Made by a program: the position numbers and the translations under genes. 64,000 bases of DNA from positions 1 through 64,000 of the IMG/VR virus record IMGVR_UViG_3300013947_000026, one strand, 5' to 3'. A model generated the notes under the pieces. The model ran no database searches. It was not told the DNA's origin and saw only the letters and a program-made list of their open reading frames with translations. Positions within the stretch are counted from its first letter, which is position 1, and every line of letters starts with the position of its first letter. This stretch comes from a virus (Duplodnaviria; Caudoviricetes). Below, in pieces: positions 2,673 to 64,000 of the stretch.

Positions 2673-4697
2673 ATGAAGTACGATAACAAGGCGTTTCAAG
2701 AGAAGTATGAAGCATGGAAGAATGGTGCTGATTACTGGAAAGATATACGTGGGATTAACCTAGGAGGAGACTCTTAGGTTAAGGAACCTACACCTGAAGA
2801 ATAGCAGTAGATTGATATATAGGTTCAGTCTATACTTAATTCTTATGACGCAGGTAAAGACGTAGGCATTGCCAGTGAAATAACAAAGCCTATTCCATAC
2901 GACGCCCCACTAGATTTTGAGGTACCTAAATTTAAAGGAGGTAAAAATGATAGCAATGACTCTATCGGTTCTTTTGTTCGTAGGCTTGGTCCTATTGTAG
3001 GACAACAATTGACAAGATATGGCTATGGAGATACAGCCTATTATAATGTGATGCGCTAGTTGGCTTATGAGTCTAATTATGGTAGGTCTAATGTTGCTAG
3101 GAAACAGCACAATTATGGAGGTGTTGGATGGAATGGTAAAACATATACAAGCTACAAAACTGATGCAGATTTTGTAAAGGATTATGTTAGATTAATGCAT
3201 AATAGATACGGTTCAGCACTTAAAGCTAAGTCTACACAAGATTACGCTAAAGCTCTTAAGTAGAAAGGTTATTATCAAGATTCATTAGCAAATTATTCCA
3301 GAAATCTAAGAAATATGGATAGCTTAGTTAAAGCGGCATATGCTCACAAAAAAGCAAACCCTAATGCTTATAATTATGCTGTAAATATGGCTGATCTTGA
3401 ATAGGATTATGAAGACGCTAAAAATTATAGCCCGATAGTTATAAATAGTCCTTCTGTCAAATAGCCTGCTACGATACGAGCAGATGTGCCTACTACTTTA
3501 CTTGGCCCTTCTGAAGAGGAAATAAAAGCACAATAGAAGCAAGCTATAGATGCTTAGAGATAGAAAATGTATGATGCTATAACAACTTCTACGTTACCAA
3601 ATGTACTTAATCTATTACCTTAGAATAATTTTGGTAAAGACGCTTATGGGTAGAAGTTTTGGCAACGCAGAGGTAGAAATCTTCATTTTAAAGATGGAAA
3701 AGACGATAGAATTGCAGGTAGCAACCCATTATAGCAAGATAAGCTTAATCAAGGTATAAATTTAGAACTTGGTTTACCTAAAAATTATTTTGCATCTCAT
3801 AGCTTTAAAGATTCTGATGGATTTAATTATACGTTATATGATTTTTATGATGCAGGACAGCTTGATGACGTTGTTGCAAAACCATCTGAATACGACAAAA
3901 GATTATTTGATGTATCAAAAAAGATGTTTCCTGACAAATAGGTGAGAGATCTCATTTATTAGGATATTCTTTATAAGAACGATAATTCCGATTACTCTTT
4001 TAATGATAAGCTATTAAACATGGTATAGTTGTATAAACTTTCTGGGTCTCCATCTATAACTAATAAAAGCAAATCAAGGTATAATATAATTCGTAGTAAT
4101 TATATTCCATACTACAATCACATAAACGCGTATCCAGGATCACTTATTGCAGAATTAGCTCACGCATATTAGTATAATAATTCTATAAAAAAACCAATAA
4201 TTACATTAGATAATAAAAGTATTGGCGGATCAGATTACAAAAGGAAAGGGAGTATAGAACATTAGGCTCATGCGGTAATTGAGCCAAACCTTGAAAACTT
4301 TATAGAAACTGGCGATAAAAAGTATTTAAAGAAAGCAAAAGCAGACGCAAATAAAGAGTATGATAGATATGGCCATTTGTGGTGGGATAAAGGGAAAGAC
4401 CCATATTTGTATCCACCAACAGACTATGATTTTATACAAGCTAGAGATCTCGGATATCAACCAGGACCTGATGGACATTGGCCTAGCAGAAACTACAAGA
4501 CTGGCAGGTATTTAAAATCACCAGTACACCCTACATTATATAAAGGTATTATAGCTGATAATAGTTTAGGTTATTATCCATACTATAAAGATGGAGCTAT
4601 ATACACTAATACATGGAAGGGTAATGAACCTTACACTAATTTACTCGAAAGCTACATCTAGTATAGATCTAATAAAAAGAAAGGAGTTAAAAAATGA
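2673..4697 (+). CDS. Modular virion cargo protein: GH73/FlgJ-type glucosaminidase + zincin-like domain + C-terminal HWPS/HPT domain
   Basis: Open frame from ATG 2673 to TGA 4695-4697 with TAG=Gln. MR(Q)LAYESNYG..NYGGV..GYY resembles GH73; also AELAHAY(Q)..EH(Q)AH and GHWPSR..LKSPVHPT. ATGA overlap with the next gene. Confidence 0.75.
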
Positions 4698-57945: not shown

Positions 57946-57959
57946 AACTTATAAGTTAG

Positions 57960-58036
57960 AGTGAGAGGAAGGAGTCGGACCTTCGTATACATATAATGTA
58001 TAAAACTGCCAAGTGTTACTTTCAGACTTCTCTCAC
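57960..58036 (-). ncRNA. tRNA-like RNA with non-canonical D/anticodon region
   Basis: Acceptor GTGAGAG/CTCTCAC, T-arm GAAGG-TCCGACT-CCTTC, hairpin TATAC-ATTATAT-GTATA. Confidence 0.6.
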
Positions 58037-61977: not shown

Positions 61978-63888
61978 TTAATCATCGAATAATTTTAATT
62001 GACGATTTACAAATTCGCTAACAATTTTACTAGCTTTACTAATATAATATTGGTAGTTTATTTGCTTGTCATCAGTATTGGTATTATCTATTTTGTTTGC
62101 AATACAAACTCCGTAATCTGTTATTCTTACTTCTTTACGTGGTTCATATATATCCTCTTTAACACGCATTAGATAATAACCGCTATTTGATGCGTAGTAT
62201 CTGTTAATCCTTTGAATAGGTTTACCTCCATATTCAACTTTAAATTCCCTGTTTACGCTTTGAGACATTAGGAAATTACGGATATCTTTATCCTCCTTAA
62301 CAAATTTGTCTATCGGTTCTTTTGTTAAAAAATAGTTTATCACAGCTTTCGGTATAATAACTGGTGTCATACTATTATTAAAACCTATTTCTGTGATAAA
62401 CCTGCCTTTCTTTTCTATCAGTTCCGGATTTCTAGATTGAGAATATCCTTTGTGAATTCCAAAGTAATTATTCACGTCGTACTGATAAAACGACTCATAG
62501 TCATCGGATTCAAAGGAAAGCTTGGCTAATTGTTCAATTTCTTTTATTGAATTATTTATTAATCCCCTATTAGAAATATCTGCAATATAAACGACACCAT
62601 CTGTATTAACTTGCACAATCTCACAATTTAACGACAGAAGCTTATCCACTAGCATTAATAGTATAAGTTGTCCGTTTATACGTATTTTATATATGTTTAG
62701 TGGATCATATGCCCAGCTACCTTCTTGTTGCATCTTTCCTGTAAGAGCATTGAGAGCCTGTTTAAACGCCTTAGACTTCAATTTCTCTCCACTATGTTTG
62801 GCAGTAACCCTCTCCTTGTATAAAGATTTGTACACATTCCAAAATTCTTCTCCCAAGTGGACTGGCAACCATTTGTATATAAGCGCTAATGACGGATACA
62901 TTGAAGTTACATCTGAATGCCCTATAAATTGTCCATCTTTGGGTTTGTAGATCCTAGGTTCATTTATGGTATGTATTCCACCTTCACCTATAGAATAGCA
63001 AATATTCGAGAGAACAAACTTCTTCTCGTAGTTTTCTTGTTTCTTATCAGACTTACATGGATTACATGTAGCGTTTTTTACATCCAATAAGACTTCTTTC
63101 AACTTTGGATTAGAATATTGTATAAATGGAAGTATTATGTCCTTTAAATTAATTTTTCCGATTTTTCTTGCATTCGCTTTGAGTTCATCTTTTGATGATT
63201 TGTTATATTTCTTATATTCTCTTAGCAATATCTCTTCTCCAAACCGTACTCCGCTCATAGAAAGAGCATCAAACCCCCATTCAGATTCTACTGTTAATCG
63301 TAGGTCTATTTCATTCTTTACCTTTTTAAGTAAAGTTTCAGTAGCTTCTACATCGTTAACATTATATGCTATCATATCATCAATTTCGCAATCCGTAAGT
63401 CTAGAATTGAAATCACCGTCAAACTCTTGAACGTTTGGCATATTTAATAAGATTTCAATTTCTTTTAGACTTTTTTGTTGCTTAGAACTATATAGCATAG
63501 TCATAAGATCAAACGAATAAAAATTATTTGCATATTTATATTCTTTGATCCTGTCGTTTTTTTCTGTTTTTTCTGCACTTATAATTTCTCTACTCAAATA
63601 ATATATTGAACTACAAATACGAAGATACTCTAACCGCTTCATAATACCACAAAATTGTATCATGTAATTTATTATTATATCATCATAATGCTTATTGTTG
63701 TATCCACATATGATGTGTTCTACTCTTTTATAGTAAAAGAAGTCAACTAGTTCTTCTAGTTGATTTTTTCGGTTAGATATCTCGAATTTATATAATTTAT
63801 GACTCTCTGAATCTTTACAAGTACAATGAAAACAATTTGGAAAAACCTCTATGTCATATAGAACTACTGGTCTATCCTTTATTATCAT
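61978..63888 (-). CDS. polB: Family B DNA polymerase
   Basis: YDIEVF, YNNKHYDD, YNVNDV (exonuclease); DVTSMYPS, KQALNALTG, NTDG (polymerase). Start taken at MIIKDRP. Confidence 0.9.
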   Translation of the reverse strand: MIIKDRPVVLYDIEVFPNCFHCTCKDSESHKLYKFEISNRKNQLEELVDFFYYKRVEHIICGYNNKHYDDIIINYMIQFCGIMKRLEYLRICSSIYYLSREIISAEKTEKNDRIKEYKYANNFYSFDLMTMLYSSKQQKSLKEIEILLNMPNVQEFDGDFNSRLTDCEIDDMIAYNVNDVEATETLLKKVKNEIDLRLTVESEWGFDALSMSGVRFGEEILLREYKKYNKSSKDELKANARKIGKINLKDIILPFIQYSNPKLKEVLLDVKNATCNPCKSDKKQENYEKKFVLSNICYSIGEGGIHTINEPRIYKPKDGQFIGHSDVTSMYPSLALIYKWLPVHLGEEFWNVYKSLYKERVTAKHSGEKLKSKAFKQALNALTGKMQQEGSWAYDPLNIYKIRINGQLILLMLVDKLLSLNCEIVQVNTDGVVYIADISNRGLINNSIKEIEQLAKLSFESDDYESFYQYDVNNYFGIHKGYSQSRNPELIEKKGRFITEIGFNNSMTPVIIPKAVINYFLTKEPIDKFVKEDKDIRNFLMSQSVNREFKVEYGGKPIQRINRYYASNSGYYLMRVKEDIYEPRKEVRITDYGVCIANKIDNTNTDDKQINYQYYISKASKIVSEFVNRQLKLFDD

Positions 63889-63890
63889 AG

Positions 63891-63943
63891 TCCCTAGTGA
63901 GGGTTTGCACCTCTCAGTCATATCCTTTCGGAGCACACTAGGG
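63891..63943 (-). ncRNA. Minimal tRNA-like element directly upstream of polB
   Basis: CCCTAGT/ACTAGGG 7-bp stem, TCC-GAAA-GGA hairpin, GAGG-TGCAAAC-CCTC T-like arm. Confidence 0.55.
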
Positions 63944-64000
63944 TGACCACTGGTGTCGTGGTCAGTTTTTTACGAACATTTTACTATGCTGCTATTCTCA

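Follow-up and report, generated by a model that had tools for sequence, protein, structure and literature searches.

Among the viruses of the human gut, crAss-like phages are the most abundant. Their host group, the Bacteroidota, translates mRNAs without reliance on Shine-Dalgarno pairing. In bacteria, the tufB operon yields a tRNA-mRNA co-transcript, and precursors lacking CCA are cleaved by RNase Z just 3′ of the discriminator. Ojala, Montoya and Attardi in 1981 and Forner et al. in 2007 reportedly described tRNA punctuation in mitochondria and, in those of plants, the tRNA-like t-elements. Wilusz et al. are said to have described the mascRNA of MALAT1 in 2008, and the MEN-beta tRNA-like element is likewise said to be eukaryotic and nuclear. 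A translational operator of the gp43 DNA polymerase of phages T4 and RB69 was reportedly characterized by Andrake et al. in 1988 and Tuerk et al. in 1990. Minimal RNase P substrates consist of an acceptor stem plus a T stem-loop (McClain, Guerrier-Takada and Altman 1987, reviewed in PMC11143913), and such acceptor/T-stem/T-loop hairpins suffice as bacterial RNase P substrates and are correctly cleaved (PMC11143913). RNase P also cuts tmRNA precursors, the P1/P7 phage C4 antisense RNA and polycistronic mRNAs (PMC11143913). For crAss-like phages, Yutin et al. 2021 treat suppressor tRNAs and polymerase switching only, and the literature searched on crAss-like phages and tRNA or tRNA-like elements yielded no description of the arrangement presented here, in which tRNA-shaped modules directly precede replication genes.

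The window, that is, the whole stretch of DNA analysed, comprises the first 64 kb of a 102,882-bp IMG/VR virus record from a TAG-recoded crAss-like phage. The closest named phage is cr7_1 (Crassvirales, Suoliviridae, Burzaovirus), with ~80% DNA identity over polB. The + strand genes form long ORFs only with TAG as a residue, as in a 3952-codon frame with 96 TAGs. The late genes at window positions 1–53827 (+) require this reading, for example in frames of 3952, 1827, 1708 and 1553 codons with 30–96 in-frame TAGs. The standard code is used in the − strand block from 53.8 kb onward, which contains the genes of a recombination exonuclease, an ATPase, a primase, a DnaB-type helicase and a family B DNA polymerase (polB). 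In the whole genome, ARAGORN found no CUA suppressor and called only tRNA-Lys, tRNA-Met and a permuted tmRNA; none of its tRNA calls lies in the 64-kb window. The phage's own tRNAs lack an encoded CCA, and searches for a CCA-adding enzyme, an RNase Z-type or RNase Z-like protein, or a PIN nuclease encoded by the phage gave no match.

The gene upstream of polB encodes 219 amino acids and matches no Pfam or PHROG family; a search through it, aimed at PolA-bearing relatives, returned same-clade loci only. Its stop codon, TAG (63986–63984), is followed by an in-frame TAA (63983–63981). The TAG-plus-TAA end looks like a back-up stop, given that late genes read TAG as a residue; relatives have TAA. 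A 95-nt spacer separates the 219-aa gene from polB and contains a hairpin (hairpin 1) and a 52-nt element. The locus is composed of the following features.

63984–64000, − strand: 3′ end of the 219-aa upstream gene (whole ORF 63984–64643 of the genome; ORF lists, sequence)
63944–63964, − strand: hairpin 1, 7-bp stem TGACCAC/GTGGTCA and 7-nt loop GACACCA (pair covariation, near-invariant loop)
63892–63943, − strand: 52-nt mini element, CCCTAGTG...CACTAGGG (sequence, folding, comparison)
63943–63937 with 63898–63892, − strand: closing stem of the element, 7 bp, with an optional eighth pair 63936/63899 (fold)
63932–63923, − strand: GNRA arm of the element, UCC-GAAA-GGA (fold)
63922–63914, − strand: conserved junction of the element, UAUGACUGA (conservation)
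63913–63899, − strand: 4-bp arm with a 7-nt loop, GAGG-UGCAAAC-CCUC (fold)
63889–63891, − strand: A-C-U linker, with A63891 at the discriminator position and CU at 63890–63889 (comparison with relatives)
61978–63888, − strand: polB, family B DNA polymerase of 636 aa (phrog_1252, E = 4.9e-126)

On the − strand, hairpin 1 (63964–63944) runs into the element (63943–63892) with zero spacer, and the element ends three bases upstream of the polB ATG (63888–63886). Both structures had been picked out by an earlier sequence-only reading, and they are present at these positions on the − strand with the letters exactly as described. The pattern CCCTAGT-N20-50-ACTAGGG occurs once in the window, compared with 0.00 expected from 100 shuffles. 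Against shuffles, the element alone (52 nt) folds with a z-score of −2.7, which becomes −3.6 when the hairpin is included; a 96-nt stretch gives −3.2, and the + strand folds less well (z = −1.8). A three-way junction is the centroid structure and is tied with the minimum free energy (MFE) structure. RNAalifold favours an alternative in which the UGC just after the closing stem pairs with the GCA of the 7-nt loop; the two folds may coexist as a pseudoknot.

The closing stem runs straight into the 7-nt-loop arm in the manner of a tRNA-like minihelix (~12 bp), and the resulting stack of 7 + 4 bp (or 8 + 3) with zero spacer amounts to 11 bp, not 12. The G|UGCAAAC|C loop fits the T-loop pattern U-N-C-R-A-N-Y, and its A/G variant retains R57. 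The loop has a G at position 55, and C54 is found in one relative. The same seven nucleotides can also be read as a U-A-closed GCAA/GCGA GNRA tetraloop with a bulged C. The sequence-only reading had recognized an acceptor stem, a GNRA arm and a T-like arm; the overall fold stands, but its T-like arm can be read with either a T-loop or a GNRA loop. The element is best read as a stripped-down tRNA-shaped fold in which one GNRA-capped arm replaces the D and anticodon arms.

Several known RNA classes were compared with the element. Rfam gave no match to the element at the gathering score, nor at E ≤ 10 over a 301-nt stretch. Neither ARAGORN nor Rfam found a true tRNA or tmRNA here, and the element has only 52 nt and a single internal arm. 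None of the riboswitch or ribozyme classes of Rfam 15 matched in a relevant way at E ≤ 10, and inspection by eye revealed no hammerhead core (CUGANGA). The junction UAUGACU could pair with AGUCAUA in polB codons 28–30; this was attributed to chance because loci L005 and L007 have lost the target although the element is invariant. The likeness of GGATATGACTGAGAGGTG to the ExoI codons CTATATGACATAGAGGTT is a 7-mer match expected by chance (our own estimate, ~0.4).

PolB aligns from residue 1 of ATG 63888 in all 80 of the 80 viral-contig relatives. The frame from GTG 63936 is open in this genome, and coding of the stretch as an N-terminal extension of PolB from GTG 63936 or ATG 63921 was thus weighed. 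Most relatives have GGGAACTATG in place of GGGACTATG; with this 1-nt insertion, neither ATG 63921 nor GTG 63936 is in frame with polB. Moreover, ~177 nt of non-coding RNA genes intervene in eight relatives. The chance of an extension is negligible, and the alignments refute it and place the start at ATG 63888. A conserved extension from 63936 or 63921, which the sequence-only reading had named as its own refutation, was not found. ORF finders are misled by such elements and extend polB to GTG 63936. The RefSeq record of cr7_1 (NC_055895.1, L082) annotates the polymerase CDS from locus position 3530 with 487 aa. The polB-homologous frame of cr7_1 opens at 3083 (L082 3083–4993) and encodes 636 aa including the ExoI motif. 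The annotated cr7_1 polB is therefore 149 codons short, and the 52-nt element lies within the unannotated gap.

Each of 41 viral contigs contains the element once, and its place is invariably the gap that separates the 219-aa gene from polB. The element is confined to this phage clade and absent from 80 primase loci. A dispersed repeat or mobile element is ruled out by this distribution (one copy per genome, always before polB; 0/80 primase loci). Between sub-clades, the element is 94–98% identical, compared with 38–64% for the adjoining spacer and 71–77% for the polB body.

Covariation of the polB leader, which had been put forward as a check, was compared in 18 distinct sequences and was found in some stems only. 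Hairpin 1 exhibits changes on both sides at four of the seven pairs with a near-invariant loop, and the first pair of the element switches from C-G to G-C. The GNRA-arm loop varies among GAAA, AAAA and UACA, and a paired A..T insertion lengthens this arm in two lineages with different loops. Other variation in the element is limited to the junction base before the 4-bp arm and positions 1 and 4 of the 7-nt loop. The remaining element pairs are invariant, and they neither back nor contradict the fold. A metagenome scan with a 15-base anchor returned mostly chance matches and eight true copies, which contributed no new variation or covariation. The variation pattern is that expected of a structured RNA under selection, and the comparison points to strong purifying selection on the fold. 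The near-invariance of the stems and of the single-stranded UAUGACUG exceeds the needs of a shape-only signal. In the first 50 codons of polB, synonymous identity between sub-clades is 0.8–0.93, compared with 0.5–0.7 further on. This conservation points either to an additional constraint at the nucleotide level or to a recombination tract running on from the element.

The position occupied by the element, the polB slot, was inspected in relatives using a strict descriptor (4–5-bp arm, U-N-C-R-A-N-Y loop and at least six of seven closing pairs). A module ending ≤35 nt from the polB ATG is found in 52 of 61 distinct loci, compared with a background of 0.011 per scanned window elsewhere on the same strand, and most of the nine missed loci contain visible variants. 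The slot is occupied by the same element (3–6 nt before the ATG), by tRNAs or by non-canonical acceptor-plus-T-arm modules. Where ARAGORN and Rfam call a tRNA in the slot, its 3′ end lies 2 nt upstream of the polB ATG, and the Rfam model ends at the A equivalent to A63891. The slot-tRNA geometry in relatives is A-CU-AUG, as in this genome; the linker in relatives is ACU, AACU or ACUACU.

Eight relatives (L004, L006, L026, L027, L031–L033 and L036) contain both the element and a tRNA. The element is unchanged and is separated from the ATG by ~177 nt, which places it ~180 nt from the start. The ~177-nt cassette consists of a ~100-nt structured spacer closed by ATATGTG/CACATAT, a GACCC-GACG-GGGTC hairpin and an A33 tRNA. 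A GC hairpin is thus found directly 5′ of a true tRNA too in the cassette-bearing relatives, and such a hairpin therefore seems no bar to processing. The slot tRNAs of the eight relatives keep the acceptor, D and T arms. Their anticodon loops contain 7 nt (GAU or GAC, with A rather than U at position 33), 8 nt or 5 nt, and ARAGORN assigned some to Ile or Val and left others undetermined. Because these loops vary, decoding is apparently not the kept function, and it does not look like the selected function of the slot tRNAs. The presence of both RNAs in the eight relatives rules out the element as a simple decay product of the neighbouring tRNA.

In relatives with 51–56% PolB identity, the slot modules are 49–125 nt long and consist of an acceptor plus a T arm, mostly canonical GGTTCGAWTCC arms with odd middles. 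They are considered non-canonical because the Rfam tRNA model gave no match to them at E ≤ 1. A conserved leader follows these modules, and the ATG lies 17–32 nt (mostly 24–29) beyond their 3′ ends. A tRNA-Met occupies the slot in L051 and L055, compared with a tRNA-like module in L054 and L056, and the downstream leader is the same. The 49-nt module of L065 has the three-part layout of the element but a canonical T loop, and, among the primase loci, the 46-nt mini module of L127 has the same architecture, also with a canonical T loop.

The sequence-only reading had cited the primase gene as a second replication gene with a tRNA-like fold at its start. A tRNA-shaped module does lie just before the primase start, both here and in relatives.

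57961–58036, − strand: primase module of 76 nt, with a GTGAGAG/CTCTCAC stem and a GAAGG-UCCGACU-CCUUC arm (descriptor, folding)

This module ends 15 nt upstream of the start codon of the primase gene, ATG 57945. A fixed leader, either CTAACTTATAAGTT-ATG or the version particular to a clade, is found across 72 distinct primase loci. Within this slot (window 57946–58036, −; loci L124–L203), the leader CTAACTTATAAGTT has the palindromic core AACTTATAAGTT. The modules themselves differ completely between phages whose primases are at least 90% identical, and several are 46-nt minis, which indicates that the primase slot is a cassette site. The freely swapped primase-slot modules contrast with the near-invariant polB element.

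Tests of the descriptors on the whole genome gave further modules. An unconstrained minihelix descriptor is unspecific in this AT-rich genome (60 matches vs 33 in shuffles), and a T-loop constraint was then added. The strict descriptor gives 6 matches, compared with 1.5 in shuffles. Four GC-rich matches have perfect Watson-Crick stems: the tRNA-Lys, a tRNA-like module at 87273–87345, the polB element and the primase module. At the gene at 74142, the T arm and acceptor strand of ARAGORN's permuted tmRNA are located 8 nt upstream. The modules of polB, primase and the gene at 74142 lie between ORFs in the same orientation and share their slots with true tRNAs, which is the context of a processing signal. 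Beyond the window, genome positions 95104–95151 (+) contain a 48-nt mini module with an 8-bp stem of the AGCTAGGT type, an AUG-AAAG-CAU arm and a GGGG-UUCGUUG-CCCC arm; more structured sequence follows it.

The accessibility of the polB start was compared with that of the other − strand genes. Among the 34 genes, the polB start region is the most GC-rich and the most structured. The GC content of positions −20 to −1 is 0.55 for polB, compared with a mean of 0.22 and a maximum of 0.45. The MFE of positions −30 to +21 is −11.0 kcal/mol, compared with −3.4 kcal/mol on average and −7.3 kcal/mol at the lowest. The full element folds at −17.6 kcal/mol, and the AUG is located 3 nt from an 8-bp helix. 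By these predictions, the structure would either be removed or throttle the initiation of polB. A/U-rich leaders precede most other − strand genes. Six of these genes (65655, 71946, 74631, 76698, 77870 and 79224) have the leader TTATCAAAA(T)(T)ATG (or ATATCAAAAATG) in common, which may serve in translation initiation or as a promoter-proximal motif in the early/middle operon. In place of this leader, polB, primase and the gene at 74142 have tRNA-shaped modules.

From the observed structure, conservation, slot and tRNA interchange, we infer every cleavage step and the effect on translation described below. Hairpin 1 and the element are best read as an RNA module that is transcribed as part of a long − strand replication operon and acts in cis. 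The element would act as a shape-only signal for host RNase P and RNase Z and thereby free an occluded, near-leaderless polB message; we give this reading a probability somewhat short of even. Host RNase P would cut at the 5′ edge of the element (63943) and leave the upstream message ending in hairpin 1, which would shield it against 3′ exonucleases. An RNase Z-type 3′ tRNA-processing activity would cut after A63891 and release a polB mRNA with a 2-nt leader (CU-AUG), whose start codon would be uncovered from the stable helix. Host enzymes would do the processing, since no phage CCA-adding enzyme, RNase Z-type or PIN nuclease was detected. The phage tRNAs lack an encoded CCA, and therefore an endonucleolytic 3′ cut is expected in this system. 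In the literature searched, no transcript-end data were found for the predicted cuts at the element's 5′ edge or discriminator.

Processing is favoured by the slot equivalence with tRNAs (52/61 loci) and the interchange of tRNA-Met (L051, L055) with tRNA-like modules (L054, L056). The changes in the element are RNA-neutral only, compared with flanking DNA of 38–64% identity, and the polB start is predicted to be the least accessible of the 34 − strand genes. The minis of the same architecture with canonical T loops (L065, L127) and the mini module at 95104–95151 in this genome also support it. The points against processing are the non-recognition by ARAGORN and Rfam, the 11-bp stack, the possible GNRA loop and the RNAalifold alternative. 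The base-by-base conservation likewise goes beyond the needs of a shape, unlike the swapped primase-slot modules. Moreover, freeing the polB start cannot be the sole role of the element because it is unchanged in the eight relatives with a tRNA before the ATG. A broader form of the proposal is that Crassvirales operate their replication operons in the manner of organelles: a family of anticodon-less, in part miniaturized modules of ~46–115 nt would occupy fixed slots before polB, primase and other genes, and their excision by host RNase P/Z would yield mRNAs that are leaderless or have a fixed leader, with the polB mini additionally having a sequence-specific partner. We put this generalization forward tentatively and with appreciable doubt; such a partner would account for the near-invariance of the polB mini element.

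Two other RNA-level readings are not exclusive of processing and are live alternatives. In a translational operator, the structure would stay uncut, occlude the polB start and hold polymerase synthesis low, and a protein (PolB or a phage or host factor) bound to the loops and junction would set the level of translation. The start codon 3 nt from a stable helix, in the structural outlier of the operon, accords with such control. A specific ligand is suggested by the invariant single-stranded junction and loops, and the raised synonymous identity of the first 50 polB codons (0.8–0.93 vs 0.5–0.7) would fit as well. An operator is nevertheless rather unlikely: the element remains unchanged ~180 nt from the ATG with a tRNA between them in eight relatives, and modules 24–29 nt upstream in distant relatives would not occlude the start. 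The element may alternatively be a stand-alone small RNA, excised like a tRNA and acting in trans on a phage or host protein as a tRNA mimic or decoy; it would then lie before polB merely because the phage keeps its tRNA-type genes there. This would agree with its tRNA-like conservation at nearly every base, its arrangement in an array with tRNAs in some relatives, and the many other tRNA-shaped modules and the permuted tmRNA in the genome. It leaves unexplained why the last module always adjoins the start or a fixed leader at two genes in many clades, and we regard it as improbable.

A DNA-level feature, either a recombination or insertion hot spot by polB or a + strand terminator against antisense transcription, is less likely than an operator or a small RNA and has, in our estimate, only a slight chance of being correct. 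In a consensus scan of this genome, hairpin 1 does score as terminator-like on the + strand. However, an intrinsic terminator is rejected because L029, L031 and L032 have no T-run and L003 has only a weak one, yet the stem covaries. The insertion of the 177-nt cassette exactly after the element in some relatives would suit a hot spot, and the conserved element and polB 5′ end could together be a recombination tract. The changes in the element obey RNA pairing rules, though, and the poorer folding of the + strand (z = −1.8) and the true tRNAs in the slot also point to a role of RNA.

If processing is true, this locus would be the first case, to our knowledge, in which a phage follows the logic of mitochondrial tRNA punctuation, and phage replication-gene expression would be tied to the tRNA-processing capacity of the host. 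It would also account for the translation of genes without a normal initiation region in a host that does not rely on Shine-Dalgarno pairing. tRNAscan-type tools and Rfam miss these elements, and gene calls are distorted around them. The miniaturized, sequence-invariant polB variant, its coexistence with tRNAs and the accessibility outlier are the additions of this analysis.

The closest described systems each share part of this arrangement. The T4/RB69 gp43 operator is also a structured RNA immediately 5′ of a phage family B polymerase start, and only this position is shared; the T4 operator is a single hairpin by the Shine-Dalgarno site that is bound by the polymerase, whereas the structure here is a three-way junction and any binding is putative. 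Like mascRNA and the MEN-beta element, the polB element is a tRNA-like fold in a longer transcript that would serve as an RNase P/Z signal (putatively here) and not as a decoder. The two eukaryotic nuclear RNAs differ in that they set the 3′ end of a long RNA, and they have no sequence relation to the element. In the tufB and C4 cases, as putatively at this locus, tRNA-processing enzymes separate mRNAs from the tRNAs or tRNA-like folds transcribed together with them. Those cases involve true tRNAs or single special substrates and not, as here, a fixed-slot anticodon-less family before replication genes.

The fold itself resembles the minimal RNase P substrates, in which a closing stem likewise stacks on a short 7-nt-loop arm and canonical cleavage occurs without the D or anticodon arm. 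Unlike them, the element has an 11-bp stack, an extra GNRA arm and no 3′ CCA, and its loop is UGCAAAC, compared with UUCRANY; it is a candidate substrate. The logic resembles that of mitochondrial punctuation and t-elements, in which tRNA-shaped modules likewise lie between the ORFs of a polycistronic transcript in the same orientation. As in mitochondria, excision by RNase P/Z, with cleavage putative here, would set mRNA ends that are leaderless or near-leaderless. In contrast to mitochondria, the modules belong to a dsDNA phage of Bacteroidota, lack decoding arms and are in some cases reduced to ~50 nt.
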